From assembly GCA_043798995.1 (NCBI GenBank), contig JAZDOD010000008.1:119468-183467 (forward strand): a stretch of DNA of 64,000 bases, given 5' to 3'. Below, one piece after another: positions 2,051-27,778 of this stretch. A program made the position numbers and the translations under genes. The DNA is from a bacterium. Lineage in GTDB: Bacteria; Patescibacteriota; Patescibacteriia; JAACEG01; JAGUWE01. Below the pieces are notes generated by a model. That model did not search any database, was not told where the DNA came from, and was given only the letters and a program-made list of their open reading frames with translations. Positions within the stretch are counted from its first letter, which is position 1. Every line of letters begins with the position of its first letter.

Positions 2051-2608
2051 TTAAAGATTAAAAACATCATTTTTTAGTTTGGCCATAAGCTGGAAATCAA
2101 TATTTTCTTTCTTGAGAAGATTACTGATCGGAAAGTCAACTTCACTAAAGCCGTTAGTTTGATTTAAATTAGTTTTAAGATCTAGGAGATCTTTTCTATT
2201 TTTAGCTCGGCCGTTGAGAGAAATCAGCCAGTAATAATTTTTATTTTCTTCTTTTTTTTCAATTTTAAGATTAGTCAGAAAAATATTTTCCGGCACAATT
2301 TTAATTAGAAAATCAATTTTTTCTGCCACGGGATTATAATCAGACTGAATTTTATTTATTAATTTAAGTTTATTATTTAATTCTTTAATATCCTGATTGA
2401 AACTGCTGAATTTTTTATTTCCATTTTCAGAAATTAATTGACTGTAGTTATTATTAAGAAGATATTTGCCAACACCAAGGCCCAAGCTGATAATAAAAAT
2501 CAAAAGAAAAATAAAAATAAAGAGTTTTTCAAAAAGCAGATGACTGCGTTTTTGTTCAATATGGATTCGCTGTTCAGCCGAAATTAGATTAAGATTAAGG
2601 TTAATCAT
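2051..2608 (-). CDS. PilN-like fimbrial assembly protein
   Basis: Short cytoplasmic N-terminus, one TM and a coiled-coil, immediately downstream of pilM. Confidence 0.45.
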   Translation of the reverse strand: MINLNLNLISAEQRIHIEQKRSHLLFEKLFIFIFLLIFIISLGLGVGKYLLNNNYSQLISENGNKKFSSFNQDIKELNNKLKLINKIQSDYNPVAEKIDFLIKIVPENIFLTNLKIEKKEENKNYYWLISLNGRAKNRKDLLDLKTNLNQTNGFSEVDFPISNLLKKENIDFQLMAKLKNDVFNL

Positions 2609-2616
2609 ATAAGTTT

Positions 2617-3711
2617 TTAGTAAATCAGATTTTTATCATGCACGCCCCTCAAGGCTAAGCCAAGCGCAGTAGTAAATTTAAGAGCCAAGCATTGATCGAA
2701 GGACTTATAAGTTCTGCCAATATTAACAAGGGGATTAGCTTTTTTGATATTTTTACCCAAAACAGTTTTTAGATTTTCTTCCAAGCCGCTTAAATTGGCT
2801 CCGCCTCCGCAAATGACAAGCTCGTTTATTTCTTGAGCTTCGGTAAAATGGTCTTTATAAAAGTTAATCGCTTCTTTTATTTTTTGGATTAAATGTTTGG
2901 TATTATCAGTCAATATTTCAGTTAAAATTGTCTGACATTCTTTATTTATACTACAAACAATTTTGGCTTTCTCGGCTTGTTCAAGAGAAATATTTAGGCG
3001 TTTGGCAATAGTTTCGGTTAAAATTTTGCCGGAAATCGGCAAACTGACGGTAAATTTTATATTATTCTGATCAAAAATAATAAGACTCGTTCTGACTCGG
3101 CCAAAGTCAATAATCATTTTTGCCCCGACATCTTGATTTTTATTGATCGGAAAAAGACTGCGGATGATTGCCATTGATTCAATTTCCAAAGCCACCGGTT
3201 CAAAACCGCAATATTTTAGCACCCCCAGATAATTATTAACTATGCTTTTGGGAGCAGCGCCAATCAGAATTTCAGTTGAGTTAGCGGTTTTACTAACTAC
3301 TTGCCAGTCCAGATATATTTCCTTGATTGGCAGGGGAATGTGTTCTTCGGTTTCGCGGCTGATTATCTCCGGAATTATTAACTCGCCTTTATCATATTTT
3401 TTTTCTTTAAGTTCCGAGCTTTCCGATTCAATTTTAATCCATTTAATAAATGTTTTCGGCTCAGGCAGAACCGAAATTACATTTTTGGTTTTAATTTTTT
3501 TGCCATTGATTTTCTTAAAAAGCAATTCCACACTTTTTTTGAATTGTTCCTGGTCTCGAATTTCGCCATGCTGAATACAGCCCTCCGGCAGATCTACGCT
3601 GCTAAAAGAAGTTAATTTAACAATTTTGCCGATTTTTTTTAGCTGAACTAATTTTAAAGTTAGTTCTCCAATATCCAGAGCAAAGGGCAAATTTTTTAAT
3701 ATTAAGGACAT
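2617..3711 (-). CDS. pilM: type IV pilus assembly protein PilM (actin-like ATPase fold)
   Basis: 364 aa with an FtsA/PilM-like fold and motifs (LVICGGGANLSGL, DIGELTLKLVQL), in operon context. Confidence 0.7.
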   Translation of the reverse strand: MSLILKNLPFALDIGELTLKLVQLKKIGKIVKLTSFSSVDLPEGCIQHGEIRDQEQFKKSVELLFKKINGKKIKTKNVISVLPEPKTFIKWIKIESESSELKEKKYDKGELIIPEIISRETEEHIPLPIKEIYLDWQVVSKTANSTEILIGAAPKSIVNNYLGVLKYCGFEPVALEIESMAIIRSLFPINKNQDVGAKMIIDFGRVRTSLIIFDQNNIKFTVSLPISGKILTETIAKRLNISLEQAEKAKIVCSINKECQTILTEILTDNTKHLIQKIKEAINFYKDHFTEAQEINELVICGGGANLSGLEENLKTVLGKNIKKANPLVNIGRTYKSFDQCLALKFTTALGLALRGVHDKNLIY

Positions 3712-3715
3712 AATT

Positions 3716-5176
3716 TTAGGGATTAAGTTCGCGCCATGAAATAAAAGTATATTCGCCGGATGTAGGAAAGGAGGGCGGCGGACTAAAAGTTAAGTGACCA
3801 TCGTAGGTAATGGTTCGGTTTTGATAACCCGAGCAGTAAGTTTCTCCGCAACTCCAGCTAAAACCATAACGGTTGTAAGTTGCCAGCGAACCGTATAAAG
3901 CGATTGAGTTTCTTTCATAATAAGTTGAGCTGCAACTTGAAGTAAAATAATAGCGGCCGATTCTGCCACTTTTGGCCACCAGCGAAGCGTCAATTTCCAA
4001 ATTGTCGTCACTGTATAAACCAACGGTAATGTTGCGCTGGGCAATTAAACCCAAAACATCAGAGCCGTTTTTATTAGTATACAATAAATTATGATTGATG
4101 ATAATATCAGCATCGCCGCTAGCCAAAGGTTCTCGGGCCGCTACCAAAGTAAGGCGGCTATTATTAATTTGGCCGTCAACCCAAACCTTATCTTCAATAA
4201 AGATTATGCCATTAGCCGGCAGAGGTTCGCCTAATTGAGGATTGTTCATAGTTTGGGCAATGCCGTCGGTATCGGTACTGCCACAAGTGTCTGTAACCGT
4301 TTTTACTATATAAATATCTACGGTTTGATTGGAATTAAAGTGCAGCCAATAACCGCGTTTGTTGGATTTATCAAGATAGAGTCCGTTGTTTTTAGCCAAT
4401 GTTTTTAAATCAGCCAGATTAGTAGTAAAGCCGTTAAAATCAACTGTGGTTACAGGAAATTTTCGGCCGGCTTGAAAAACATCCGTTCTTTGGGGGACAG
4501 CGGCTGGTGGTTGCGGGTCTTGAGGAGCAGTATGAGTATGGACTCCGAATTCAGTTTGGCTGTCATCTGGATCAACATAAGTTTGTCTGGCGCTGGTAAC
4601 AATATTGTGTGCCACGCCGTCAAATCTAATGCCGCCATTGGAATGAATCGGGCCATAGGTTTGGGTGCCGCTGCCAAAACGCATATCGGCATTTGCCACC
4701 ACAGCATAGGCAGAGAGCGCCGGAATGCCGTATTGAGCCAGAATTATTCGCTTGATATTTGGATAACTCAAAAGCCAGCCGGTTGATTGAATTGAAACAA
4801 TGGTAGTGTTAGGCATAGGCGTGATAATTAAGCTGAATTGGCCGATGATGTTGCCCTGAGGGTCGCGAAAATCATGGACATAAGGGCCGGCTCCGCCGGT
4901 TCCGTCCTGAAAATCGTCTGGTTCGTGCGCTAAATGCCAGCGGTAATAATTAATGCCGGCTTCAGCCACATGAATCGCTTGGGCTTTGGCTACTTTGTAT
5001 TTATTCAACTTATACTGATAAACCACCAGCGAAAGCAATCCGCCGGCTAAAATGATGAAGATGGAGGTGAAAACGAGAAGGGAAACCAAGATAGCTCCTT
5101 GATTAATAACTTCTGACTTCTGACTTTTTCCGCCAGAGGCGGATCCGCCTTTGGCGGAGACTTTTGACTTTATCAT
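3716..5176 (-). CDS. PilX-like minor pilin / pilus-associated protein
   Basis: N-terminal QGAILVSLLVF hydrophobic helix resembling the PilX_N domain, with no Glu at position +5. A large Gly/Thr-rich extracellular domain follows. Confidence 0.4.
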   Translation of the reverse strand: MIKSKVSAKGGSASGGKSQKSEVINQGAILVSLLVFTSIFIILAGGLLSLVVYQYKLNKYKVAKAQAIHVAEAGINYYRWHLAHEPDDFQDGTGGAGPYVHDFRDPQGNIIGQFSLIITPMPNTTIVSIQSTGWLLSYPNIKRIILAQYGIPALSAYAVVANADMRFGSGTQTYGPIHSNGGIRFDGVAHNIVTSARQTYVDPDDSQTEFGVHTHTAPQDPQPPAAVPQRTDVFQAGRKFPVTTVDFNGFTTNLADLKTLAKNNGLYLDKSNKRGYWLHFNSNQTVDIYIVKTVTDTCGSTDTDGIAQTMNNPQLGEPLPANGIIFIEDKVWVDGQINNSRLTLVAAREPLASGDADIIINHNLLYTNKNGSDVLGLIAQRNITVGLYSDDNLEIDASLVAKSGRIGRYYFTSSCSSTYYERNSIALYGSLATYNRYGFSWSCGETYCSGYQNRTITYDGHLTFSPPPSFPTSGEYTFISWRELNP

Positions 5177-5778
5177 AAATTGTCTTTCAAATTTCTAATT
5201 TGAATATCGGTTTCTAAATTATATTGCTGGGGTGATTTGCCGGGCTTGATATCAACTTTAAGGTAAGCGTGGACTAATCTGATTAAATTTTTGTCAATTG
5301 GTTGAGTTAATTGGTTGTTGCTACCATCAAAATAAGTAAAGATCGGAGTTGTTAGATTATTGACATAGCCGGCAATAAGAGTAATAACCTCGTTTTGGAC
5401 AAGATATTCGGCCGGCGAGCCGGTTGGGTCAATCACCCCTTTATTTAAATCAGTGCCGTTTAAAAAATAACGGACCCGTTCGGCCGAGCCATCACCATCA
5501 ATGTCAGAATAAAAAGTCAGGTTCTGCGCACCGGCATCCTCAATTAAATAGTCGCCGCGGTCGCTGGCAATTGCTTCGCGGATTTCCTTGGTCATAACTT
5601 CCAAACCATCGCGGGCGCTTTTGACTTGATAATCCAATTCAGAGCCAAAAGTACTGATCCGATAACCCTGAATAAAAAATGCCGTTGCCATACCAACAAC
5701 CATAACAAAAATACCAAGACTGATTATCATTTCTAAAAGAGTAAATCCAGCTTGATTTTTTAAAATTTTTAAATTCAT
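5173..5778 (-). CDS. type IV prepilin-like pseudopilin (N-methylation motif)
   Basis: Class III signal KNQAG/FTLLEMIISLGIF. Confidence 0.7.
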   Translation of the reverse strand: MNLKILKNQAGFTLLEMIISLGIFVMVVGMATAFFIQGYRISTFGSELDYQVKSARDGLEVMTKEIREAIASDRGDYLIEDAGAQNLTFYSDIDGDGSAERVRYFLNGTDLNKGVIDPTGSPAEYLVQNEVITLIAGYVNNLTTPIFTYFDGSNNQLTQPIDKNLIRLVHAYLKVDIKPGKSPQQYNLETDIQIRNLKDNL

Positions 5779-7968
5779 TTAATTAAGGTTTAAATAAATT
5801 GTCTGGGAAGAATTAGGCAGGAGATTAATCGGTTGGACCGGATTACTTAATTTAATGGTATAACCGCCGGTAGTGGCAATGGTGTAAAGATCCCATTCCA
5901 TAGTATTTAAAAGCAGACGACCATCGCTGTCGGTTGAAAGACTGTTGTCGGAGTATTTATGAATATCCGGATCAGTGCCGATTAATTTAGCGCCGGTAAT
6001 AGCAAGAGGAACACTGCCGACATAAGTGATTTCCTGCGGCGCTTCAAACTTGGCAGCATAAATATTAAAATTATTATTGCGGTTATCTTGCCAGGTAACA
6101 TAAACAGTGCCGCTGGAATCAACAGCCAAACTGGCTGAATATTGGTCAGTGGCCGTATTATCAGTGTTGACTCTTAAATCCGACTCCCATTGCTTGACAC
6201 CATCCAGATTATATTTTTGGGCATAAACGTCGCGATTGCCTTGGCGTTCGTCAGTCCAGGCAAAATAAACAAAATTGCCGCTGACTATAATTGAGGAATA
6301 ATATTGATCAGTCGCAGTGCTGTCGGTATTAATTTTAATGTCCGAACCCCAGAGGTTGGTGCCGTCCGGGCTGTATTTTTGAGCGTAAATATTTTGATTG
6401 CCATCGCGCCAGTCAGTCCAGCTAAAATAGATGTTGCCATTTGAGTCAAAGTCAAAACTCGTAAAATTTTGTGCGGCCGTGCCCGAGTCGGTATTAATTT
6501 TTAAATCATTAGCCCAGAGTTTAGTGCCGGCTGAATCAAATTTTTGGGAATAAATATCCTGATTGCCAGCCCGACTGTCAGTCCAGGCGACATAGACATT
6601 GTTATCGCTGTCAATTTTAAGATAGGGGTTAATCTGGCAATTGCCCGGGCTGTCGCTCGTGGCTTTAACTTCAGCTGCCCAGCCATTATTGCCAGCGGGC
6701 GTGATTTTGTGAAGATAAATGTCGCCGCAATCATCACGATCATCCTGCCAGACAACATAGCAATTATTGGCGCCGTCAACATCAATAATGGGCAAAATCT
6801 GATCAGCTGAATTAGCGCCGGTATCAATTTTTTTAGAGCCAGACCAGAGATCATTGCCGTTAGCGTCCCTCTTGATTAAGAAAACATCCTGATTGCCATT
6901 AACATCATCGTTCCAGGCGTAATAAATATTATTTTGCGAATCTAAAGCCATGTCCGGATTAACCTGGTTAACGGCGCTGGAAACGCGCGCATCCGGGCTC
7001 CAGCCCGGCGTTTCATCAGTTTTATATTTTTGAGAATAAATTCTGGGTGAGTTAGCCGAATCGCGATAATCTTCCCAAGCAAAATACATATTGCCCAGAG
7101 AATCAATTTCCAAAGTCGGGTTATAATGAGAGGCGCCGGAGCTATCGGTGTTGATTTGCCAATTGTCAGGCAAAGCTTGGCGCATGGTATAAATTGTTAA
7201 ACTACTGACTAAATCAATGGCAAAACTAATGTCGGTTTTTTGGCCGGCAAAAACCGAAGCGTGGGGTTTGGTGGGATTGGGATTTTGTATTGTTCGATCA
7301 TAAGTTTGATCAGTGCTATAACCGGTTTTGGTGACAGTAACTTTATAGCTTTCAATTGAAGCCGGAGCGCCGGGAAAGATGGCATGGCCTTCGGCGTTGG
7401 TTAAAACGTCAATTAAAATTTGTGGATTGACAGCGGAATTTTCAATATGGACATTAGCGCCGTTAATTGGATTGCCGTTAGCATTAAAAACAGTAATGTA
7501 TAATGTGCCGCCGCCGAGATTAGTTTCAATGCCTTTGGGGGCAATATCAGAAATTATTGCAACCGAACTGCCTAAATAACTTTGCCAACTAACATTGATT
7601 CTGACGCGCTTGTAATCATTGCCTAATAAATCAGCAGGAACTCCGCCAACCGTGCCATCGAAAGGATCGTCAATATAAATAACTTGGGTAGAAACAGTGT
7701 AGGTAACGCCATTTCTGATTATTTGTTCAGTTTGCGCAATACTGCCTGACGGGATACCGCCCTGAGTGCCAACACTGTTGTAGGGAAGGTTGCGGATTCG
7801 TTCCATTTTTTCATTAGCCAGAGAAATAGCGCCGATTCTGGATTTATTGGTGCCGATTATTTTCAGGGCATAATCAAACATATTAAAAATTGCCAAAACC
7901 AAAAGACTGGCAACAAAAATAGTGATAAGAACCTCAATAAGAGTAAAGCCGTAATTTTTTTTTCTCAT
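5779..7968 (-). CDS. giant type IV pilin: prepilin N-terminus, CarboxypepD_reg-like Ig domain and a 7x PD40/TolB-like beta-propeller
   Basis: Prepilin motif YG/FTLIEVL. Seven repeats of about 48 aa matching Y[FV][AV]W.D.R.GN.[DN][IV]Y.QK[YF]...G..W..D..[IV]NTD. Confidence 0.7.
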   Translation of the reverse strand: MRKKNYGFTLIEVLITIFVASLLVLAIFNMFDYALKIIGTNKSRIGAISLANEKMERIRNLPYNSVGTQGGIPSGSIAQTEQIIRNGVTYTVSTQVIYIDDPFDGTVGGVPADLLGNDYKRVRINVSWQSYLGSSVAIISDIAPKGIETNLGGGTLYITVFNANGNPINGANVHIENSAVNPQILIDVLTNAEGHAIFPGAPASIESYKVTVTKTGYSTDQTYDRTIQNPNPTKPHASVFAGQKTDISFAIDLVSSLTIYTMRQALPDNWQINTDSSGASHYNPTLEIDSLGNMYFAWEDYRDSANSPRIYSQKYKTDETPGWSPDARVSSAVNQVNPDMALDSQNNIYYAWNDDVNGNQDVFLIKRDANGNDLWSGSKKIDTGANSADQILPIIDVDGANNCYVVWQDDRDDCGDIYLHKITPAGNNGWAAEVKATSDSPGNCQINPYLKIDSDNNVYVAWTDSRAGNQDIYSQKFDSAGTKLWANDLKINTDSGTAAQNFTSFDFDSNGNIYFSWTDWRDGNQNIYAQKYSPDGTNLWGSDIKINTDSTATDQYYSSIIVSGNFVYFAWTDERQGNRDVYAQKYNLDGVKQWESDLRVNTDNTATDQYSASLAVDSSGTVYVTWQDNRNNNFNIYAAKFEAPQEITYVGSVPLAITGAKLIGTDPDIHKYSDNSLSTDSDGRLLLNTMEWDLYTIATTGGYTIKLSNPVQPINLLPNSSQTIYLNLN

Positions 7969-8100
7969 TTTTATAAAATTTAAAATTAAAAATCAAATAT
8001 AAAAAATTTAAAACACATATTTAAAAATAAAAAAATAATTTTTGCATTTTTGGTTTGCATTTTTTGTTTTTGAAATTTTATATTTTATTTTTCAGTATTT

Positions 8101-9165
8101 TTATATTGCTTGCGTTAACGAATACATCGGCATGATGACAGCAATAGCCATGCCAGCCACGGCCACGCCCAAAATAAGAATTAATACCGGTTCAATTATT
8201 GAAGGCAAATTTTTCATAATTTGATCAATGTCGTTTTCATAAAATTCAGCCAACTCTTCTAAAACATTATCAAGACTGCCGGTTTGTTCGCCAACGAGAA
8301 TCATCTGGGTGACAACCGGCGGAAAAAGAGATCCATTTTTCTTTAGTAATTCTCCCAAAGAAATACCTTTGGTAACGCTGCGCGAAGCTTTAAGCACTTC
8401 TTCTTTGTATAAAACATTGCCTAAGATATTGGCCGTGATATCAAGAGTTTGCATAATCGGAATATCAGTTTTTAAAAGGGAAGAGAAAGTGCGGGAAAAG
8501 CGGGCTAAATTTATTTTTTTGATTATCGACGCAATAATAGGTAGTCGTAAAAGTATTGAATGAAAAATATATTTGCCGCGTTTGGTTGAAATTAATTTGA
8601 AGAAAAAATAAATTAACCCGATCAAGGCAATAATAACAACCAGATAATTTTGGATAACAAACTCGCTGGTCGCCATAAGAACCCGGGTTGGCAAAGGCAA
8701 AGTTACCTCCGCTTCTTTAAAGACAGCCGTAATTTTGGGAATGACAAAAACTATCATTAAAGTGCCAATGACAATCATGGCAAAAACTACCACGGCCGGA
8801 TAAATCATCGCGCCTTTGACCTTGGAACGAAGTTCATGATCTTTTTTCATCTGAATATAGATTCGGCGCAGGACATTTTCCAACTGGCCGCTGGCTTCCC
8901 CGGCTTTAATCATATTGACAAAAAGATTGTCAAAAACACGGTTGTATTTGGCCAAATGATTGGAAAGCGGTTCACCCTTTTCCACCCCTTGAGTAATATC
9001 AACAATGATTTCTTTAAATCGTTTGTTTTCGGTTTGAAGCGAAAGCGTTTTTAAAGCCTCGGCCAGTGAAATCCCTGCTTTAAGCATTACTTCTAAGTGC
9101 TGGACGAAAAAAATTTTCTCTTTGACAGGAATTCGTTTAAACTTTTTTAAAAAATTTAATTGCAT
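8101..9165 (-). CDS. pilC: type IV pilus inner-membrane platform protein PilC (GspF family)
   Basis: T2SS-F domain motifs, 3 TM segments, 354 aa. Confidence 0.8.
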   Translation of the reverse strand: MQLNFLKKFKRIPVKEKIFFVQHLEVMLKAGISLAEALKTLSLQTENKRFKEIIVDITQGVEKGEPLSNHLAKYNRVFDNLFVNMIKAGEASGQLENVLRRIYIQMKKDHELRSKVKGAMIYPAVVVFAMIVIGTLMIVFVIPKITAVFKEAEVTLPLPTRVLMATSEFVIQNYLVVIIALIGLIYFFFKLISTKRGKYIFHSILLRLPIIASIIKKINLARFSRTFSSLLKTDIPIMQTLDITANILGNVLYKEEVLKASRSVTKGISLGELLKKNGSLFPPVVTQMILVGEQTGSLDNVLEELAEFYENDIDQIMKNLPSIIEPVLILILGVAVAGMAIAVIMPMYSLTQAI

Positions 9166-9174
9166 AAAGACAAT

Positions 9175-9252
9175 AAATTTTTATTATCAAGCGAGCGAGA
9201 CCCACCAAAGTTTTTGAAAAAAATTTAGGCGGGCGAGCGAGCGCTGATATCA
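9175..9252. repeat. GC-rich MITE-like element (copy 1), ends TTATCAAGCGAGCGAGA ... GCGAGCGCTGATATCAA
   Basis: Both ends recur in inverted orientation at 52700-52810 with a different interior. Confidence 0.6.
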
Positions 9253-9259
9253 AAGGGTC

Positions 9260-18996: not shown

Positions 18997-19962
18997 ATGC
19001 CGAGATGTTTTTACTTTCCTAAAACACGGAGCAAGCAATTGTCGAAGGGATTCAACTCTTCTTTATCAAACGTGATTGATGATCTAAACTGGCGTTTCGA
19101 CAAGACACAACGAACTAAAGCAGAAGAGAAGCACTTTAAACACGACAGAAAAAATTTGCACGAGAAGATAAAAGCAGAAACAGGAGGAGATACGATCAAA
19201 AAAACCATAGATGCGACTAACGAAATATTAAAAAAGTTAAGAATAGATGAAATCGACATAAGCCTATTTAAAACTTTGACTCCATATGATAGTGCCGAAC
19301 TCGTTTTCCCTTTTGATGGTTTTGAACTACCAATTGGACAAGGTGGCTCAGGTATAGAAATGGCCGTTGCTATTGCGTTTTTAGAGTCATTAGCAAAGAT
19401 TTCAAAAGAAGACATCGTTATTGTAATTGATGAGCCAGAATTGCACCTACACCCAACACTTCAAGAGAAGATTTTTAATCATTTCAAAGAAATATCGAGC
19501 GAAATTCAGATTATCGTTTCAACTCATTCGCCCTTTTTGTTTAGGAATGTTTATCAAAACAGTAAAGTTCAGTTGCTTTTAACAAAAAATGAAAGTGATA
19601 AAATCCTAATCCAAGACGCCAGGTCTTCTGAATTTGGGTTGTTAAATTGGAGTCCATCGTGGGGAGAAATATGTTATTTTTCTTACGATTTGCCGACAAT
19701 TGAATTCCACGATGATTTATATGCGAGTTTGCAGGACAAAAACGGAACGGAAAGTATCGCTGCAACAGAAACTTGGTTGATAGCTAATGGGCAAGCAAAG
19801 GAAATTAAATGGAAAGACGACAAAGACATTCAACAAGAAGAAACTTTAATGACCTATATAAGAAACAGAATCCATCACGGCGATAATCAAAATAGGCCAA
19901 TGTATTCTCCCGAACAGTTGAGAGATTCAATAGCGCGAATGATTACTTTACTAAAACTATGA
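18997..19962 (+). CDS. ABC/AAA_21-type ATPase, C-terminal part (signature, Walker B, H-loop) with an HEPN-like RNRIHH tail
   Basis: GQGGSGIEMAVAIAF, IVIVIDEPELHLHP and IIVSTHSP motifs. It is in a different frame from 18513-18953. Confidence 0.55.
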   Translation: MPRCFYFPKTRSKQLSKGFNSSLSNVIDDLNWRFDKTQRTKAEEKHFKHDRKNLHEKIKAETGGDTIKKTIDATNEILKKLRIDEIDISLFKTLTPYDSAELVFPFDGFELPIGQGGSGIEMAVAIAFLESLAKISKEDIVIVIDEPELHLHPTLQEKIFNHFKEISSEIQIIVSTHSPFLFRNVYQNSKVQLLLTKNESDKILIQDARSSEFGLLNWSPSWGEICYFSYDLPTIEFHDDLYASLQDKNGTESIAATETWLIANGQAKEIKWKDDKDIQQEETLMTYIRNRIHHGDNQNRPMYSPEQLRDSIARMITLLKL

Positions 19963-19993
19963 ACGAATTTTCTGAAGACAAATTAACCCCCGT
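19963..19993 (+). other. duplicated remnant of the hsdR 5' end (MNEFSEDKL...)
   Basis: ATGAACGAATTTTCTGAAGACAAATTAA here matches ATGAGCGAGTTTTCCGAAGACAAATTAA at 21665. It overlaps the upstream stop in an ATGA arrangement. Confidence 0.6.
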
Positions 19994-20230
19994 CTTGTGC
20001 GAAATACCATAACTAGCCAAGTTGTGGTGGTAAATTGAGCAAACAATCAAGCGTATAGAAACTGTCTAAAATGTGTCTAAATTAGACACTTGCAAAATAC
20101 TATACAAGAAAACACCGGTTTTTACGCTTAAAATAAGGGCAAAATAGGCAATGGCGCGTCTCTTGTAATGTATAGTTGACAAGAGATGGGCGTTTCTTGT
20201 AAACTTAAATAATCAAACAATACAAGAGTT

Positions 20231-21661
20231 ATGAACGAAGAAAGGAAAGAAAAATTATACCAATTTGTGCGCGACCAAATAGCACAGGGCGTTTTTCGCA
20301 CTCGTGCCTATGTTTTCAACGACCGTGGAGAGCGTAATCCACAAAGGAGTATGTTTTTGCGCATACAAAAATATGTCCATGATTTTATGGGCGGCAATGC
20401 TTCCGTGCGCTGGTTGGTCATGCCGGGTCTTCGCGGGTCCGGCAAGACAACTCTTTTGGCACAGTTATATCACGATACGGATGTACCAATAGAACGCAAA
20501 TTATTCTTGTCGGTGGATCAAGTTACCCAGACATTCGGCGCCTCACTGCAAGAAATTATTCAGGTATACGAAGAAGCGGTTGGTGGTTCGTTTGAGCGGC
20601 TGGAAGAACCGGTATTTTTATTTCTTGATGAAGTGCAATATGATCGTCGCTGGGCCGGATTTTTAAAAACCGTATATGACCGAACTCGGAAAGTTTTTAT
20701 TACTGCGACTGGTTCTTCTGCTCTGATGTTCAATATAAACGCGGATGTTGCTCGTCGAGCTGTATCGGAAAAATTGTATCCTATGAGTTTTACGGAATTT
20801 ATGAAAATCAAACACAATAAATATGAAGAAAAAGGATTGGGGCGAGAATTAAGACAAGCATTGCTGGATTCCAAATCAGCGCAAGAAGTTTATGATCAAC
20901 TTATATCATGCGGGGAAACAGTGAGGCACTATTGGCTGAATGTTGAACGCCAAGAAATAACGCACTATATCAATTACGGCACATTGCCGTATATGGTTGC
21001 TCTGAAAAATGAAGCTCTAGTATACGACCAAATTAAAAAATCGCTTGAGCGTGTTATTTCGGTTGATATTCCCCAAATTGGCAGATTTCGGCCAGATATT
21101 GCTTCAAAATTCCCGATGCTCTTATATGCGATAGCTGATTCAGAGCAGCTTAGTCTAAATAATCTTTCGCGCGTTATGGAGATTGGGAGACCTACACTTA
21201 TGCACATGCTTGATGTTTTGGAGCAGACGGAAACAATAATGCGTGTATATCCGCATGGATCCCATCGATCACAAGTAAGAAAACCATCAAAATATTTATT
21301 CACGTCCCCCGCATTTCGCGCGATGTATTTTAAATTCATCGGTAGCACGCAACGACAAGAAATATACGAAGGCAAGTTGTTGGAAGATATTGTCGGATTG
21401 TATTTGGGGCGGCTTTGCGAACAGCGATCAATATCCCTTACTTATGATTCTGCCGCTGGCGGTGCGGATTTTATCGTGCGAGATAACAATGCCCTTATCG
21501 CAATTGAAGTGGGTCGTGGTCAAAAAGGATTTGAACAGGTGGCACGCACCGCTAAAAAGGTCAAAGCAAAATATGGATTGGTTATTTCTGCGTCAGAATT
21601 GAAAATAGATGTAAAACATTCTGCCGTTTCAGTTCCGTTAGAATTTTTTCTACTTATATAA
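20231..21661 (+). CDS. AAA+ ATPase of the DUF4143/COG1373 family
   Basis: Walker A GLRGSGKTTLL, Walker B FLFLDEVQY and a DUF4143-like C-terminal region. Confidence 0.75.
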   Translation: MNEERKEKLYQFVRDQIAQGVFRTRAYVFNDRGERNPQRSMFLRIQKYVHDFMGGNASVRWLVMPGLRGSGKTTLLAQLYHDTDVPIERKLFLSVDQVTQTFGASLQEIIQVYEEAVGGSFERLEEPVFLFLDEVQYDRRWAGFLKTVYDRTRKVFITATGSSALMFNINADVARRAVSEKLYPMSFTEFMKIKHNKYEEKGLGRELRQALLDSKSAQEVYDQLISCGETVRHYWLNVERQEITHYINYGTLPYMVALKNEALVYDQIKKSLERVISVDIPQIGRFRPDIASKFPMLLYAIADSEQLSLNNLSRVMEIGRPTLMHMLDVLEQTETIMRVYPHGSHRSQVRKPSKYLFTSPAFRAMYFKFIGSTQRQEIYEGKLLEDIVGLYLGRLCEQRSISLTYDSAAGGADFIVRDNNALIAIEVGRGQKGFEQVARTAKKVKAKYGLVISASELKIDVKHSAVSVPLEFFLLI

Positions 21662-21664
21662 AAT

Positions 21665-24600
21665 ATGAGCGAGTTTTCCGAAGACAAATTAATAGAGCAA
21701 ACTGCTATCAAATTTTTCGGCGAGCTTTGGTCCGCTTCCGCTAAAGCTACAGCGGACAAGGGCGCTGAGAATTTCGTGAATGCTTATTCAGACGAGGGTG
21801 ACGCACGACTCGGACGAGAAAACCAGGGGCAGGTTGTTTTGATGAAATATTTAAAACCAGCACTTGAACGATTCAACCCTGATGTATCTACCGAGGGCTT
21901 AAACCTCGCGATCGACGAGATTATAAAAGACCGCTCGGCGATGAGCATGGTGAATGCGAACCGTGAAGTATGGCAACTACTTCGGGACGGCGTAAGGGTT
22001 GAGACGGAAAATGAAAAAGGCGAACAACAGACCGAGACAGTAAAGATTATTGATTTTGAAAATCCAAAAGAAAATCACTTTATGCTCGTATCCCAGCTTT
22101 GGGTAACCGGCGAATTGCATAAACGCCGTCCCGACTTAATTGGCTTTGTAAACGGCTTGCCGCTTGTGCTGATTGAGCTGAAAGCATCGCACAAAAATCT
22201 TCGCAATGCCTACCAGCAAAACATTCGGGATTACAAAGACACGATTCCGCAGCTTTTTTGGTATAACGCTTTTATAATTATTTCCAATGGTATTGAAAGC
22301 AAAGTTGGCACAATTACCGGCGCGTATGAACATTTCAACGAATGGAAGAAAATCAAGGACGAAAAAGAGGTTGGAAAAGTAAGTTTGGAAACGGTAATCA
22401 AGGGCACCTGCGAACCAGCGCGGCTTTTGGATATTATTGAAAACTTTATTCTTTTTGACGACTCCCGCGGAGAACGCGCCAAAGCGATTGCCCGATATTT
22501 TCAATTTTTCGGAGTGAACCGTGCTTTTCTGCAAGTTCAAAATCGGGAAAAAAATAAGGGCCGCCTCGGTGTTTTCTGGCACACGCAAGGGTCCGGCAAA
22601 TCATATTCAATGGTTTTCTTGTCTCAAAAAGTGTTTCGTAAGCTGACCGGAAATTTTACTTTTGTCGTGGTCACAGACCGCAAGGAACTTGATAGGCAAA
22701 TATACAAGACCTTTGCCGCCTGTGGCGCTGTTTACGAAAACGAAGTCCATGCCGATTCCGTAGAACATCTTAAGCAACTGCTTAAAGAAGACCACCGCCA
22801 TGTTTTTACGCTTATCCATAAATTTGCCGAACCAAAAGAATTATCAAACAGAAGCGATGTGATTGTGATGGCCGATGAAGCGCATCGCACGCAATACGAC
22901 CGCATGGCGGCAAATATGCGCATTGCGTTGCCTAAGGCATCATTTCTTGGCTTTACCGGCACGCCCTTGATGGCTAGCGGTGAAGAAAAAACCCGAGAAG
23001 CTTTCGGTGATTATGTCTCAACATACAACTTCGCGCAGTCAGTAAAAGACGGAGCTACGGTTCCCCTTTATTACGAAAATCGTGTTCCAAAACTGGAGAA
23101 TGTAAATCCGGATATTCAGAAAGATTTGGAACGGGTAATGAATTTTTACGATCTTGCGCCGGAAGAAGAGGAAAAACTGGAACAAGAATTTTCAACTTTC
23201 TATCATCTGATAACCCGCGAGGATCGCTTGAATAAAGTCGCAGAAGATATTGTCGCGCACTTCACCGCTCGAGGATATAACGGAAAAGCAATGGTTGTTT
23301 CTATTGATAAGAAAACGGCTATTCGAATGCACGCCAAAGTCAAAGAACAAATGCAACGCCATTTGGCAAAATTGAATATAGCTTTATCCAAAGCTGCTGA
23401 CGAACATGAAAAAGAAAAGATTCGGCAAATCATAGAACAATACGAAGGAATTGATATGGCAGTAGTGGTAAGCCAAGGCCAGAATGAAATCGCCGACATG
23501 GAAGAATTTGAGATTGATATGAGGCCGCTTAGAGCTCGTATGCAAAATGAAGATTTGGAAACCAAATTTAAAGATCCCGACAGCAACCTACGCATTGTCT
23601 TTGTTTGTGCAATGTGGATTACCGGTTTTGATGTTCTCAACCTTTCAACGCTCTACCTTGATAAGCCGCTTAAGAATCACACACTGATGCAGACCATCGC
23701 CCGCGCTAATCGAGTATATCCGGGTAAAACAAACGGCCTTATTGTTGACTACATCGGCGTATTTAGAAATATTCAAAGAGCCCTCGCAATTTATGCTACT
23801 CCGGAGAGCGGCGCGTCAATCGACGACATTATTAAAGAAAAAGAAGCACTCGTTGAGTTGTTGGTTTCAACCGCCACACAGACGAGAGGATTCTTAAAAA
23901 AGCTTGATCTTGATGTTGATAAATTGCTGAAAGCAAAAGACGCAGAAAAGATACGCCTTGTTGATGTATTCACAAATCGTATTTTGCAGGACGAACAGAC
24001 GAAGAAGAGATATCTTGATTTTGCGTCAGATGTCTACCAACTTTACAAAGCGGTATTGCCCGAGCCCAAGGCGGAAGATTATTATCAAGAAGTTATGGCC
24101 TTTAAAGTGATCGCTTCTCGTATTAAAGAAGTCATTGAGGAAGAAGCTGATGTCAGTCAAGTAAAAAAAGACCTTGAGGATTTGCTTGACCGTTCTATAA
24201 AGGCGGGAGAGTTTGTAATCAAGGAGCCAAAACTGAAAGATTTAAGTCATATTGACTTTGAAGCGCTCCGGAAATTTTTTGACGACACTGAAAACAAAAA
24301 CATTGCCGCTGAAAGTTTAAGTGCCGAGCTTGAAGAAAAAATCAAAGAAATGGCGCGGAAAAATAAGATCCGCAAACATTTTCTTGATCGTCTTAATTTA
24401 TTGATTAACGAGTACAATTCCGGCTCTCGCGATCTCGACTCATTTTTTGAAGAACTTCTCGCACTCGCAAAAGAATTAAGCGAGGAAGATCGCCGGGCGA
24501 TAAAAGAAAACCTCACGGAGGAGGAATTGGCGATATTCGATCTTCTTGCGAAGGAAAATCTTAACCCCGATGAAGTGGAGAAAGTGAAAAAAGTTGCGCT

Positions 24601-24820
24601 TGAGTTGTTGGCTAAACTTAAAGCAGAAAAGTTTGTCTTGGATTGGAAGCGGAAAGAGGAAACGCGGGCTGATGTGAAAATAACAATCCGGGATATGCTA
24701 TATGATAATTTGCCCGAGCCAGCGTACTCCGAACAAGATTGCGAAGACCGGACACAAAAAGTTTATTTCCATGTTTACGACAATTATGTGGACGCAAAAA
24801 TTAATGTTTACGCGCAGTAG
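21665..24820 (+). CDS. hsdR: type I restriction enzyme R subunit HsdR
   Basis: N-terminal PD-(D/E)xK motif (VLIELKAS), helicase motif I (HTQGSGKS), DEAH box (VIVMADEAHRTQY) and later helicase motifs. Confidence 0.9.
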   Translation: MSEFSEDKLIEQTAIKFFGELWSASAKATADKGAENFVNAYSDEGDARLGRENQGQVVLMKYLKPALERFNPDVSTEGLNLAIDEIIKDRSAMSMVNANREVWQLLRDGVRVETENEKGEQQTETVKIIDFENPKENHFMLVSQLWVTGELHKRRPDLIGFVNGLPLVLIELKASHKNLRNAYQQNIRDYKDTIPQLFWYNAFIIISNGIESKVGTITGAYEHFNEWKKIKDEKEVGKVSLETVIKGTCEPARLLDIIENFILFDDSRGERAKAIARYFQFFGVNRAFLQVQNREKNKGRLGVFWHTQGSGKSYSMVFLSQKVFRKLTGNFTFVVVTDRKELDRQIYKTFAACGAVYENEVHADSVEHLKQLLKEDHRHVFTLIHKFAEPKELSNRSDVIVMADEAHRTQYDRMAANMRIALPKASFLGFTGTPLMASGEEKTREAFGDYVSTYNFAQSVKDGATVPLYYENRVPKLENVNPDIQKDLERVMNFYDLAPEEEEKLEQEFSTFYHLITREDRLNKVAEDIVAHFTARGYNGKAMVVSIDKKTAIRMHAKVKEQMQRHLAKLNIALSKAADEHEKEKIRQIIEQYEGIDMAVVVSQGQNEIADMEEFEIDMRPLRARMQNEDLETKFKDPDSNLRIVFVCAMWITGFDVLNLSTLYLDKPLKNHTLMQTIARANRVYPGKTNGLIVDYIGVFRNIQRALAIYATPESGASIDDIIKEKEALVELLVSTATQTRGFLKKLDLDVDKLLKAKDAEKIRLVDVFTNRILQDEQTKKRYLDFASDVYQLYKAVLPEPKAEDYYQEVMAFKVIASRIKEVIEEEADVSQVKKDLEDLLDRSIKAGEFVIKEPKLKDLSHIDFEALRKFFDDTENKNIAAESLSAELEEKIKEMARKNKIRKHFLDRLNLLINEYNSGSRDLDSFFEELLALAKELSEEDRRAIKENLTEEELAIFDLLAKENLNPDEVEKVKKVALELLAKLKAEKFVLDWKRKEETRADVKITIRDMLYDNLPEPAYSEQDCEDRTQKVYFHVYDNYVDAKINVYAQ

Positions 24821-24844
24821 TTTGTGAGGTATATTCGAAGTTGA

Positions 24845-24997
24845 AATAGTGAAGTACCTATCCCACCTCTCAAAACCCAAAAACAAATTGTCGCCAAACT
24901 TTCCGCGGCCCAGGATTATAAAAAACAGCTTTTTGAACAGCGAACTAAATTGAAAGAATTATTTGATAGCGTCCTCCACAAATCTTTCAACGCCTAA
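24845..24997 (+). pseudogene. hsdS: hsdS remnant (C-terminal conserved region only)
   Basis: Translates to PIPPLKTQKQIVAKLSAAQDYKKQLFEQRTKLKELFDSVLHKSFNA, the conserved HsdS repeat region, with no TRD. Confidence 0.5.
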
Positions 24998-25047
24998 TAA
25001 CATACCAACAAACTTGAGAATGTTGGGATATTGTATATAATAAAAAT

Positions 25048-25332
25048 ATGGGGAAAATGAAAACCGCAAAACAAATGGAGCGACACCTTAAAGGTATGGC
25101 GAATCATTACCGTATTGAGATACTGCTTCTTATTGCCGAACGCGATGGAATAACGCTTGAAGATATTGTTGAAACACTCGGCGCCAACGAGAAGACTATA
25201 GGCGAGCACACGCGACGACTCTTTCAGGCGGGACTTATCAATAAAAAGTACCGCGGCAAATTTGTAGAGCACACGCTGTCGCCATACGGAAAAACATTCG
25301 TCAGCTTTCTCAAATCATTTCAACGTATATAA
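25048..25332 (+). CDS. ArsR/SmtB-family small HTH regulator (paralog 1)
   Basis: MANHYRIEIL...TIGEHTRRLFQAGLI HTH. It is flanked by 24-bp direct repeats at 25009-25032 and 25344-25367. Confidence 0.7.
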   Translation: MGKMKTAKQMERHLKGMANHYRIEILLLIAERDGITLEDIVETLGANEKTIGEHTRRLFQAGLINKKYRGKFVEHTLSPYGKTFVSFLKSFQRI

Positions 25333-25394
25333 CAACATCCTTACAAACTTGAGAATGTAAGGATATTTTAAACTTAAATATAAATAAGATAAAG

Positions 25395-25510
25395 ATTCCG
25401 TTACTGCCTCTCGAAACCCAAAAACAAATCGTTGAAAAACTCTCCGCGGCGCAGGAATACCCCAGTAGTAGAACGCAAAGCGTTCACTACGGGGCAGGCA
25501 AAAAAAAATA
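25395..25510 (+). pseudogene. hsdS: second orphan hsdS conserved-region fragment
   Basis: Translates to KIPLLPLETQKQIVEKLSAAQEY. It shares about 85% nucleotide identity with 24866-24918. Confidence 0.4.
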
Positions 25511-25549
25511 AGGAGAGAAGATCATTGTTAACTTAAAAAATTTAGGCGT

Positions 25550-26038
25550 ATGAAAAAGAAAGAAAACAATTTCGCGTTTATAGACGGCCAAAACCTTAAT
25601 CTCGGCATTCAAAGCTTGGGCTGGAAATTGAATTATTGGCGTTTTAGAAAATATCTTGCGGAAAAATATTCGGTAGCAACGGCGTATTACTTTATCGGTT
25701 ATGTAGCCGGTAACCAGCCGCTTTATTCCGAACTGCAAAAAGCCGGCTATGTGTTGGTGTTTAAGCCAACCATTCCAGATGGTGATGGAAATGTAAAGGG
25801 CAATATAGATGCCGATCTGGTTTTACAGGTGATGATTGATTTTCCAAATTATGATCAGGCAATCATTGTTTCAAGTGACGGAGATTTTTATTCGCTGGTA
25901 AAACATCTTTATCAAAACAATAAGCTGCGTTTTGTGATGAGTCCGTATATCAAAACTTGCTCAACTTTACTGAAAAAGGAAGCAAAAGAGAGAATTGTAT
26001 TTATGGATAATTTGCGAAAAAAGCTTGAATATAAATGA
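25550..26038 (+). CDS. NYN (LabA-like PIN) domain protein
   Basis: FIDGQNL at the N-terminus and IVSSDGDFYSLVKHL later, both NYN hallmarks. Confidence 0.7.
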   Translation: MKKKENNFAFIDGQNLNLGIQSLGWKLNYWRFRKYLAEKYSVATAYYFIGYVAGNQPLYSELQKAGYVLVFKPTIPDGDGNVKGNIDADLVLQVMIDFPNYDQAIIVSSDGDFYSLVKHLYQNNKLRFVMSPYIKTCSTLLKKEAKERIVFMDNLRKKLEYK

Positions 26039-26278
26039 AAAAGCACCGCTCGAGGACGAAACCTAAAGAGGTGCTCTCTCCTGTGAATTCTAATTAAAGA
26101 ATATTCCTATTATCAAATTTTGTCAAGTCTAAAAAATGTGGATAACTAAAAATTCGAAAAATCCGAGAAATAAAGCCAAAATTGGTTGAACCCCGAAGCA
26201 GTCCGACGCAAGGTCGGACACTACGGGGCAGGCAAAAAGTTGAACCCTTCGGTATACTCAAGGTGAAAAAATAAAATT

Positions 26279-26605
26279 ATGGAAAATGGAAAAGAGGACC
26301 AAATAATTAAAAAAATTGAAGAATTTTTTGAAGTTCCGGAGAGGGTTGCCGATAAAGTCAAAAATGTAGCAGAAAAAGTTAAGGGTGGTTATGTTTTGTT
26401 TGAAACGCGGCCTTGCTGGGACAGTTCTCCCGGCCCCTGGACTAAATTACCGGTGGCTAAAATTGTTTTTCATAAATCCACTCAAATCCGGAAGCTTTAT
26501 TGGATGCGGGCTTCTGGCAAATGGGAGCTTTATGGGCAATACAAAACATTAAACAGGGTTCTGAGGACAATAGAAGAAGATAAACACGGCTGTTTTTGGG
26601 GTTAA
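26279..26605 (+). CDS. hypothetical protein (Trp-rich, about 108 aa)
   Basis: Good coding statistics and an AAGGTGA Shine-Dalgarno sequence. No family recognised. Confidence 0.4.
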   Translation: MENGKEDQIIKKIEEFFEVPERVADKVKNVAEKVKGGYVLFETRPCWDSSPGPWTKLPVAKIVFHKSTQIRKLYWMRASGKWELYGQYKTLNRVLRTIEEDKHGCFWG

Positions 26606-26670
26606 TTCATAATTTAACAACATTCTCATATTCTGCAGAATATAAGAATGTGTGATATAATGGAATTGGT

Positions 26671-26955
26671 ATGAAAACAAAAACGGCAAAACAATTAGAG
26701 AGACACTTCAAAGGCATGGCGAATCATCACCGTATTGAAATTCTGAGGTTAATTGCTGAAAACGAAGGCATCAGTTTGGAGAGTATTGCGGGAAGTTTGG
26801 ATTGTAATTTCAAAACCATTTCTGAGCATACTAGGAAATTAGTTCAAGCCGGGTTGGTTAATAAAAAGTATCACGGCAGAATGGTTGCTCATTCTCTCTC
26901 GCCTTACGGCAAAATTTTTTATGAGTTTGTAAAACATTTCCAGGTTTCTAAATAA
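26671..26955 (+). CDS. ArsR/SmtB-family small HTH regulator (paralog 2)
   Basis: About 60% identical to the 25048 protein. It is flanked by direct repeats containing the palindrome ATTCTGCAGAAT. Confidence 0.7.
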   Translation: MKTKTAKQLERHFKGMANHHRIEILRLIAENEGISLESIAGSLDCNFKTISEHTRKLVQAGLVNKKYHGRMVAHSLSPYGKIFYEFVKHFQVSK

Positions 26956-27037
26956 CATTAATAACATTCTCATACTCATATTCTGCAGAATGTTGGAATG
27001 TCAAAATTTAGAGAAAAAGTAAAATGGAAAATGGACT

Positions 27038-27778
27038 ATGAAAAAGGTTTTGATTATAATTTTTATTGGTTTAGTAATAATTTTGGTCTGGTTTTTGCTT
27101 CCTAAAAAGGAATCAACAAACCAAAATCAATTTATGGGAGAAAAAAATTATTCTTTTGATAAGAATGGTTATATGGTGCTTCCCGAGCCAAGAAAGGAAA
27201 GCAAAACATCAATCGAAGAGGCGCTTTTAAAAAGGCGGAGTATTAGAGAATATAAAGACGAAGCGTTAAGTCTAGAAGAAATTTCTCAAATTTTATGGTC
27301 AGCTCAAGGAATTACTGCTCCAGAGCAGGGCGGTCGAACCGCTCCTTCAGCTGGCGCCCTCTACCCCTTGGAAATCTATTTAGTAGTAAGAAAAGCAGAA
27401 AATCTTGAGCCGGCTGTTTATCACTATTTGCCCGATGGTCATAAAATAGAAAAAGTTTTAGAAGGAGATGTTAGCGAAGATTTAGCCAAGGCAGCTTTAA
27501 ATCAGATGTTTATAAAAGAGGCGCCAGCAAACATAGTAATTTCAGCAGTTTTTTCTCGGACTACCTCAAAATACGGCGAACGAGGTAATCAATATGTTTA
27601 TATGGAGGCTGGCCATGTTTCCCAAAATATTTATTTACAGGTTGAAAGTTTGGAATTGGGGACAGTATCAGTAGGAGCTTTTTCTGGCGAAGAAGTTAAA
27701 AGAATTTTAAACCTGCAAGAAGAAATCCCCCTATACATAATGCCGATTGGGAGGATTAATAAATCCCGCACCTTTTAG
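27038..27778 (+). CDS. membrane-anchored nitroreductase-family protein
   Basis: N-terminal TM. Nitroreductase fold motifs ([28 protein letters not shown]). Confidence 0.7.

Follow-up and report, generated by a model that had tools for sequence, protein, structure and literature searches.

Two hsdS tail fragments beside a Type I restriction-modification module in a patescibacterial genome: probable relics of a second, lost system

A 64,000-nt stretch of a patescibacterial genome (contig JAZDOD010000008.1 of assembly GCA_043798995.1, positions 119,468 to 183,467; hereafter the window, whose own numbering is used throughout) carries a Type I restriction-modification (RM) system and, just downstream of its hsdR gene, two short stretches related to hsdS, the gene for the specificity subunit, which lie on either side of arsR1, a gene for an ArsR-like regulator. 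The region from 24845 to about 27000 is probably the surviving 3' flank of a second Type I system, of a family here called B, that has been lost from this site. The first stretch (fragment 1) would have been left behind after replacement or deletion up to an incoming module of family A, the family of the resident system, and the second (fragment 2) would be an older orphan tail cut at a hairpin mini-element, H1; both would now be non-coding relics. The comparisons behind this reading draw on retrieved metagenome and relative loci, which carry L-numbers.

The fragments and their hsdS family

The two fragments contain 53-nt direct repeats (24866-24918 and 25407-25459) that lie 541 nt apart and agree at 45 of 53 positions, with a longest exact run of 16 nt. 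The original prediction had noticed this pair at about 85% identity, and the repeat search returned the same value. A degenerate 26-nt pattern taken from the shared part occurs at only these two sites in the 64 kb, against an expectation of 0.00 from 100 shuffles. Translation gives NSEVPIPPLKTQKQIVAKLSAAQDYKKQLFEQRTKLKELFDSVLHKSFNA and then two stops for fragment 1, and INKIKIPLLPLETQKQIVEKLSAAQEY and then unrelated sequence for fragment 2.

Similarity to HsdS had been expected of a profile search, and PF01420 (Methylase_S) is the best Pfam match of both fragments, over profile positions 128-161 of 168, although at 19.5 bits (E 1.2e-3) and 19.2 bits (E 1.5e-3) the scores stay under the 22-bit cut-off. 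Both fragments are 57-86% identical in amino acids to the C-terminal residues of full-length hsdS open reading frames (ORFs) from metagenomes of the candidate phyla radiation (CPR); measured against the C-termini of hsdS ORFs of 351-410 aa, the values are 74-80% for fragment 1 and 62-86% for fragment 2, and 24 of 25 residues of fragment 2 match the C-terminus of the hsdS in L124. In an nhmmer model of the tail, fragment 1 aligns to positions 2-142 with 115 bits, most intact tails reaching 120-140 bits, and fragment 2 to positions 2-68 with 57 bits. Each fragment is up to 94% identical to tails of other metagenomes, but the two are only 85% identical to each other. HsdS is laid out as S1-D1-S2-D2, with D2 as its distal conserved region (Loenen et al. 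2014, PMC3874165), and by their sequence both fragments are this C-terminal region. They resemble D2 in sequence, in their place at the very end of hsdS and in their coiled-coil-type composition, but are unlike it in lacking a target recognition domain (TRD), a start codon or an ORF, and in being two copies of D2 with no D1.

A scan of metagenome contigs with the tail DNA pattern found 94 stretches, and at least 36 distinct tails close ORFs with at least 250 in-frame upstream codons; ten such ORFs, cut to the first Met, are 351-410 aa long, and the hsdS ORF of L039 is PF01420-positive. A protein search with fragment 1 gave 11 matches, all of 46-82 aa and all of them other orphan or contig-truncated tails. 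The hsdS of family B, a family common in CPR/Patescibacteria, is composed of TRD1, a central conserved region (IQKQIVERLDKIAEAQKLND...), TRD2 and a C-terminal conserved region (...PPLxTQKQIVAKLSA[AV]Q[DE]YKKQLLEQKxKLKELFDS...). The central region is unlike the fragments and the C-terminal region is like both, and both fragments are therefore the C-terminal conserved region of a family-B hsdS. The original prediction had called them the inter-TRD region of HsdS; the attribution to a conserved region of HsdS holds, but the region is the C-terminal one. I rejected the possibility that the two copies are the central and the C-terminal region of one gene, since the central region of the family reads ERLDKIAEAQKLND, unlike either, and because both fragments cover the same gene segment they are not complementary pieces of one split hsdS. 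The idea that they are scars of an ancestral hsdS broken up by insertions survives in part: they are TRD-less HsdS remnants, but break-up by insertion is contradicted by the repetition of the same region and by the place of arsR as a native neighbour (see below).

A remnant of the resident system's own hsdS was also considered and rejected. The original prediction had proposed aligning the fragments with the linker of the resident HsdM-S protein; the C-terminal helix of this protein (ILIPPKEVIEKFNKIAKPAFDLL) is unlike both, as is the IENN-type hsdS of its relatives, and family-B HsdM proteins share only 26-30% identity with the HsdM of the window. In 38 loci related to the resident system the order is hsdM, a separate hsdS with a central region of the LSAYDDLIENN type, inserted genes and hsdR; L001-L038 hold no family-B tail, and a close relative of the resident system, L145, has no fragments. 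The fragments derive from a Type I family other than the resident, family-A one.

Neither fragment has what makes a functional hsdS, namely at least one TRD and an ORF with a start codon. As originally predicted, no TRD precedes either of them: fragment 1 begins 24 nt 3' of the hsdR stop, straight after an in-frame TGA (24842-24844), fragment 2 sits 3' of a palindrome, and neither translation nor tblastn finds a TRD upstream. No ATG, GTG or TTG stands ahead of codon 35 in fragment 1, fragment 2 has no start codon, and the list of ORFs of at least 40 aa covers neither. One might still suppose that the fragments yield small helix-only proteins, or are reached by ribosomes reading through from hsdR, and that the products modulate assembly of the half-S methyltransferase, given that fragment 1 lies in the hsdR frame with its 47 codons intact, that the orphan tail of L127 is directly preceded by an ATG and that a 46-aa ORF starting MPDLKTQKQ... 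is found in the protein collection (P0008). This is very improbable in view of the missing starts, the two stops (TAG at 24818, TGA at 24842) that stand between hsdR and fragment 1, the running of fragment 2 into a hairpin element and the difference between the helix family of the fragments and that of the resident HsdM-S.

The edge of the resident module

In the resident system, the hsdM frame continues into the second half of an hsdS central region, one TRD and a C-terminal helix, and the sole TRD-like sequence in the window (17940-18440) lies inside this fusion, tblastn finding no other. The original prediction held that the only TRD left is the one fused to HsdM, which is correct within the window, but it saw in this the result of the break-up of hsdS. 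Fusions of the HsdM-half-S kind, 722-785 aa long, fall into at least 11 protein clusters, one of them 95% identical to the window protein, and L145, which carries the 95%-identical fusion, has neither a separate hsdS nor the fragments; the single TRD is thus characteristic of this RM lineage and owes nothing to the fragments. HsdM-half-S fusions are a known architecture, and by analogy with truncated homodimeric S subunits and M~S gamma-methyltransferases (PMC3874165) the resident one would be expected to dimerise and to recognise a symmetric bipartite site. Like homodimeric or half-size HsdS and the gamma-class fusions, the resident protein has one TRD and one helix; unlike them, it combines the half-S in one chain with a Type I HsdM whose partner is a separate HsdR. 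In L020 (Desulfobacterota), a fusion is followed by a further TRD segment.

The RM module of L145 is 93% identical to that of the window over hsdM-S and the ATPase gene and 84% identical in DNA over hsdR, and its homology to the window stops at 24824, beyond which the genes differ; the homology of other relatives stops at 24810-24823. Fragment 1 thus starts where a module that has passed between genomes leaves off. The window HsdR is itself 91% identical to the HsdR of a Jorgensenbacteria metagenome-assembled genome. Within the module, the AriA/PtuA-like AAA_15 ATPase is split into ORFs at 18513-18953 (146 aa) and 18997-19962 (321 aa), and since the module of L145 has a single gene of 466 aa, the window copy is probably a pseudogene. 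Relative to L145, which has no PDC-S01 gene, the AAA_14/DUF4143 gene at 19987-21650 (PADLOC PDC-S01) is an extra insertion between the ATPase and hsdR; a homologue with 88% aa identity occupies the same position in L003.

The junction of hsdR and fragment 1 might be suspected of being an artefact, in which tails or palindromes common to co-occurring CPR populations gave a chimeric join. The tail, the palindrome and the H elements are near-identical across many groundwater metagenome contigs, and repeats of such kind cause chimeric assembly joins. Yet the hsdR-tail junction lies outside any repeat, and the independent contig L122 has a like juxtaposition: the last ~10 codons of a family-B tail come straight after a window-type hsdR there, and a full orphan tail lies farther along. 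The order arsR-palindrome-orphan tail also recurs in L127 and L061, and I consider a chimeric join quite improbable.

Repeats in hsdS underlie switching at the hsd loci of Mycoplasma pulmonis and Bacteroides and at pneumococcal SpnIII. The original prediction brought up shufflon-type Type I systems, whose conserved regions serve as recombination substrates, and repeated hsdS conserved regions do lie here near a Type I system. Nonetheless a shufflon-type, phase-variable locus, with recombinase-driven reshuffling of hsdS, is largely refuted, and I regard it as extremely improbable: the repeats are direct and not inverted, neither copy adjoins an alternative TRD, silent TRDs are lacking, the fragments belong to a family other than that of the expressed HsdM-S helix, and the copies share 85% identity with no long exact run. 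A Pfam scan of 40 window ORFs, which left out eight larger ones, detected neither a tyrosine nor a serine recombinase; the sole mobility gene in the scanned set encodes an rve (DDE) transposase (51264-52322) and lies 26 kb downstream of the fragments. With the silent hsdS' cassettes of S. pneumoniae SpnIII/ivr, Mycoplasma pulmonis hsd and Bacteroides fragilis, the fragments have in common that they are extra partial hsdS copies beside a Type I system with a common conserved region, but those cassettes carry alternative TRDs, are inverted, share long near-identical repeats with the expressed gene and have an adjacent recombinase, none of which holds for the window fragments.

Orphan tails and arsR units in related loci

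In intact family-B loci, hsdS is the last hsd gene and its stop codon is often trailed by a 32-nt palindrome; further 3' come small accessory genes (a palindrome-bounded arsR-like regulator, NYN and others) and often one extra, TRD-less orphan tail. The window follows this plan from fragment 1 onwards. L056/L128 are collinear with window 24863-25367 (506 nt, 74% identity), the series tail, palindrome, arsR and palindrome there following an intact hsdS of 363 aa. L061 has the entire layout of tail, palindrome, arsR, palindrome and orphan tail. L127, collinear with window 25329-25470 at 86% identity, has arsR, two palindromes, the same 36-nt spacer and an orphan tail with an H element at the point where fragment 2 ends, the tail resuming after the element. 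Homologues of arsR1 (56-94% identity) adjoin hsdS tails in 18 of the metagenome loci retrieved, a figure that includes several duplicate contigs, and NYN genes adjoin family-B hsd genes and orphan tails in L039, L041 and L118. These loci show the arsR unit to be a usual native neighbour 3' of an intact family-B hsdS, and it varies among loci as a palindrome-bounded indel. In L039, L049, L070, L076 and L131 a tail, a palindrome and an orphan tail follow one another with no arsR between; the orphan tail is therefore independent of arsR, and arsR did not break an hsdS. The bracketed gene itself is ArsR-like, as the original prediction had it: ArsR1 scores above the HTH_5 (PF01022) threshold and reaches 36.5 bits for NCBIfam HTH_metalloreg, below that model's 55-bit cut-off, and it is 68% identical to its paralogue ArsR2 (26671-26955).

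The likeliest course of events would be the following. A family-A module (HsdM-half-S, AriA-like ATPase, hsdR) would have come to end 24 nt 5' of the last 47 codons of a family-B hsdS, the old gene would have lost everything 5' of that point, and the remainder would be fragment 1, whose native palindrome would now bear the promoter-like site of arsR1. Fragment 2 would already have been lying beyond the arsR unit as an orphan tail, to be shortened later at the H1 insertion. Orphan tails as such would arise by repeated homologous or illegitimate recombination at the conserved 3' end of hsdS, during the turnover of hsdS alleles and cassettes. Two observations support such an origin: orphan tails start at eight scattered model positions (2, 14, 20, 22, 29, 32, 36 and 79), and they keep a coding-like bias, third codon positions accounting for 58% of the differences in orphan tails and 59% in intact ones. 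Apart from the adjoining promoter and palindrome signals, both fragments would now be functionless DNA. Being relics of a different system, in a layout that recurs in other CPR bacteria, they would thus be ordinary gene debris and not a working switch.

Several points weigh against this account. The window yielded no 5' remains of a family-B hsdS, hsdM or hsdR, so that an earlier whole family-B system at the site can be inferred from other loci only, and the family-B flank could have arrived already truncated. The region upstream of hsdM, checked for the missing 5' half of hsdS, holds genes for RadC, an NTase/HEPN pair and a GIY-YIG protein, but nothing left over from hsdS. Fragment 1 is nearly undecayed, with its 115 bits and a frame intact to the native stop, which means that the truncation is recent or that something preserves it. 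The third-position excess of orphan tails is what repeated, recent orphaning or gene conversion would leave, yet selection for a function, whether coding or at the DNA level, would leave it too. The stops of R genes abut scraps of S tails in four unrelated loci (the window, L122, L045, where a Type III res gene overlaps an orphan tail, and L012), which is more than simple random decay suggests. Finally, the source is a metagenome-type assembly, and the hsdR-tail junction is known from the assembly alone. The scrap in L012 (13166-13305) is a different S-subunit-like C-terminus (KVKISPLETQKQRAAGMEEQEKIIEANKKLIGIMEQKISNVLSEI*), 30 nt after the hsdR stop.

A more active role would fall to the tails if tail and palindrome were recombination sites of cassette capture (att-like, integron-like or Campbell-type homologous), at which units such as palindrome-arsR-palindrome insert, each event duplicating the tail or palindrome and leaving attL/attR-like fragments. 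Direct repeats do bracket a small gene in the window, L061, L077, L115/L138, L079 and L118, and the palindrome-arsR unit is cleanly present or absent, with palindromes as its bounds, when L061 or the window is set against L039 or L070. The two-fold symmetry of the palindrome covaries (26 doubly changed cells against 12.1 +/- 2.8 in shuffles), but these figures are inflated because the set was mostly picked for arm pairing or judged palindromic by eye. The 94% identity that tail DNA reaches across metagenomes would also be in keeping with capture, and the coding-like substitutions of orphan tails are what one would expect if these still exchange with live tails. Even so, cassette capture seems to me unlikely. 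No integrase or recombinase lies in or beside the bracketed segment or among the 40 window ORFs scanned, the varied starts of orphan tails mean that there is no fixed crossover point, the window copies share just the 16-nt exact run, and the edges of the arsR indel are palindromes and not tails. By inspection, the palindrome (AACAT...ATGTT) also misfits the attC R''/R' consensus; the arsR-flanking palindromes were rejected as attC sites on the misfit, by reading, of the R''(RYYYAAC)/R'(GTTRRRY) core and on the lack of any integrase found. A comparison with integration at gene 3' ends gave a mixed outcome: bracketing repeats are present, the insert is 0.5 kb long and without an integrase, and orphan tails start at eight positions elsewhere.

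It is in the same way doubtful that the hsdS 3' tail of CPR bacteria and the 32-nt palindrome form a docking site for the gain, loss and exchange of small promoter-bearing units (palindrome-arsR-palindrome, a ~165-nt element and the H elements), with orphan tails as its footprints, which would amount to a cassette system that is independent of recombinases or uses a novel one. The orphan modules of rhs/cdiA and the gene-end duplicates at attL/attR offer a likeness, in that a complete gene end is followed by partial copies with small genes between and the orphans resemble recently live sequence; unlike these, the hsdS tails bring along no variable payload (toxin or TRD), their breakpoints vary and no integrase turned up.

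Palindromes, hairpin elements and genomic setting

 

The 32-nt palindrome family has the consensus ACATTCTCACATTCTGCAGAATGTGAGAATGT and follows hsdS stop codons in L045, L049, L054, L056, L070 and L135. Palindromes flank arsR homologues on both sides in L061, L070, L074 and at arsR2 of the window under a strict scan, and in L054 and L114 if looser copies are admitted; in L118, one copy was detected beside arsR. The variant tracks the clade of the adjacent regulator, type 1 (AAACTTGAGAATGT) going with ArsR1-like and type 2 (ATTCTGCAGAAT) with ArsR2-like proteins. In the window, TGAGAATGT has only four copies, all within the palindromes of arsR1 and arsR2. The two copies at arsR1 (A and B in Table 1) form a repeat of 41 nt at 83% identity with two compensatory stem changes, and copy B is 97% identical over 33 nt to the palindrome after the hsdS of L049. 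Its role could be that of an operator, of a terminator-like hairpin or of a site for recombination; a terminator scan of 24700-27200 found none, and Rfam offered no convincing match to the palindromes, H hairpins or ~165-nt element. Viral-contig scans with the tail and palindrome patterns gave no matches, nor did an exact-sequence look-up of ArsR1, HsdR and NYN in the assembly collection. Another copy lies between two tRNA genes in L009 (22501-22532), and in L121 and L049 copies lie inside hsdS ORFs just past the central conserved region, a position which hints that hsdS may have arisen from two half-genes.

The H family comprises hairpins of 35-75 nt with the form CCCC(R)nTAG, a variable inner hairpin and CTAnCGGGGCA(G/A)G, and CPR loci totalling 1.28 Mb contain at least 21 distinct copies, with examples in L143, L127, L098, L049 and others. 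H1, at which fragment 2 ends, is 100% identical over 40 nt in L090, from another metagenome. Some H elements lie inside an orphan hsdS tail and others are read through as C-terminal extensions of hsdS ORFs. Like Rickettsia palindromic elements and REP repeats, they are short, multi-copy, near-identical across genomes and able to sit in frame inside coding sequence, but they are another sequence family, with no Rfam match. The ~165-nt element always lies between AAACCCAAAAACA and AATCGT of an orphan hsdS tail, none of the listed copies being in the window; it has a long closing helix and an inner hairpin with CG<->UA covariation, has 7 sequence variants, and could represent either a structured RNA or a site-specific mini-insertion.

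Table 1. Coordinates of the features discussed, in window numbering unless a locus is named
Feature	Position	Strand	Description
Fragment 1	24845-24997	+	Family-B hsdS 3' tail, complete: 47 codons and TAA stop (24995-24997), then a second TAA
Fragment 2	25389-25459	+	Orphan; repeats the first ~22 codons of this family-B tail; ends after ...AAQEY
HsdM-half-S	16230-18509	+	Pfam N6_Mtase and Methylase_S (residues 571-719); one TRD and C-terminal helix
hsdR	21665-24820	+	Pfam; resident family-A Type I; its stop ends the transferable RM module on the right
Palindrome copy A (repeat D2a)	24995-25035	+	Overlaps the fragment 1 stop codons; holds the -35 hexamer of the arsR1 promoter-like site
arsR1 promoter-like site	25014-25041	+	TTGAGA-16-TATAAT, sigma-70-like; 11/12 consensus matches, consensus match only
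arsR1	25048-25332	+	94-aa ArsR/MarR-type winged-helix regulator; PF01022 26.5 bits (cut-off 22)
Palindrome copy B (repeat D2b)	25330-25370	+	Overlaps the arsR1 stop codon; stem of 9 pairs, fold z = -2.6
Hairpin mini-element H1	25460-25504	+	CCCCAGTAG...CTACGGGGCAGGC; ends fragment 2; fold -21.6 kcal/mol, z = -6.4
NYN-domain gene	25550-26038	+	Pfam; common neighbour in family-B loci
Hairpin mini-element H2	26186-26238	+	H1 family; 20-mer CACTACGGGGCAGGCAAAAA common to both; fold z = -4.4
Second palindrome-arsR-palindrome unit	26611-27001	+	palC 26611-26655, arsR2 26671-26955, palD 26956-27001
Further H-family copy	about 13926-13961	-	In the window
~165-nt element copies	L039 5826-6003; L049 5829-6003; L061 757-934; L070 490-667; L076 1089-1266; L115 1258-1435		

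For annotation, the Type I system of the window should be given as the HsdM-half-S fusion plus HsdR, the two hsdS-like stretches as probable pseudogene debris of another system and arsR as part of the old flank. The pattern of this debris (tail, palindrome, palindrome-bounded arsR, orphan tail and hairpin mini-elements) recurs in many groundwater CPR contigs, which would make the 3' end of hsdS a border prone to recombination in the defence islands of reduced CPR genomes. Type I systems on genomic islands have been reported in Patescibacteria (PMC12455944), and a literature search found no description of orphan hsdS tails in this group. As far as such searches show, the recurrent architecture and the small elements are undescribed, any functional role for them being putative; the three uncharacterised repeat or RNA-like elements are worth study in their own right.

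The region is a defence island between glycosyltransferase genes, in the order radC, the NTase/HEPN pair, GIY-YIG, the hsdM-TRD fusion, the AriA/PtuA-like ATPase (two ORFs), PDC-S01, hsdR, the two fragments around arsR1, NYN, DUF3024, arsR2 and a nitroreductase gene. Upstream, at 2051-10990 and not adjacent to the fragments, are type IV pilus genes for PilM, PilN, a pilin, a PilC-like T2SSF protein and a PilB-like T2SSE protein.

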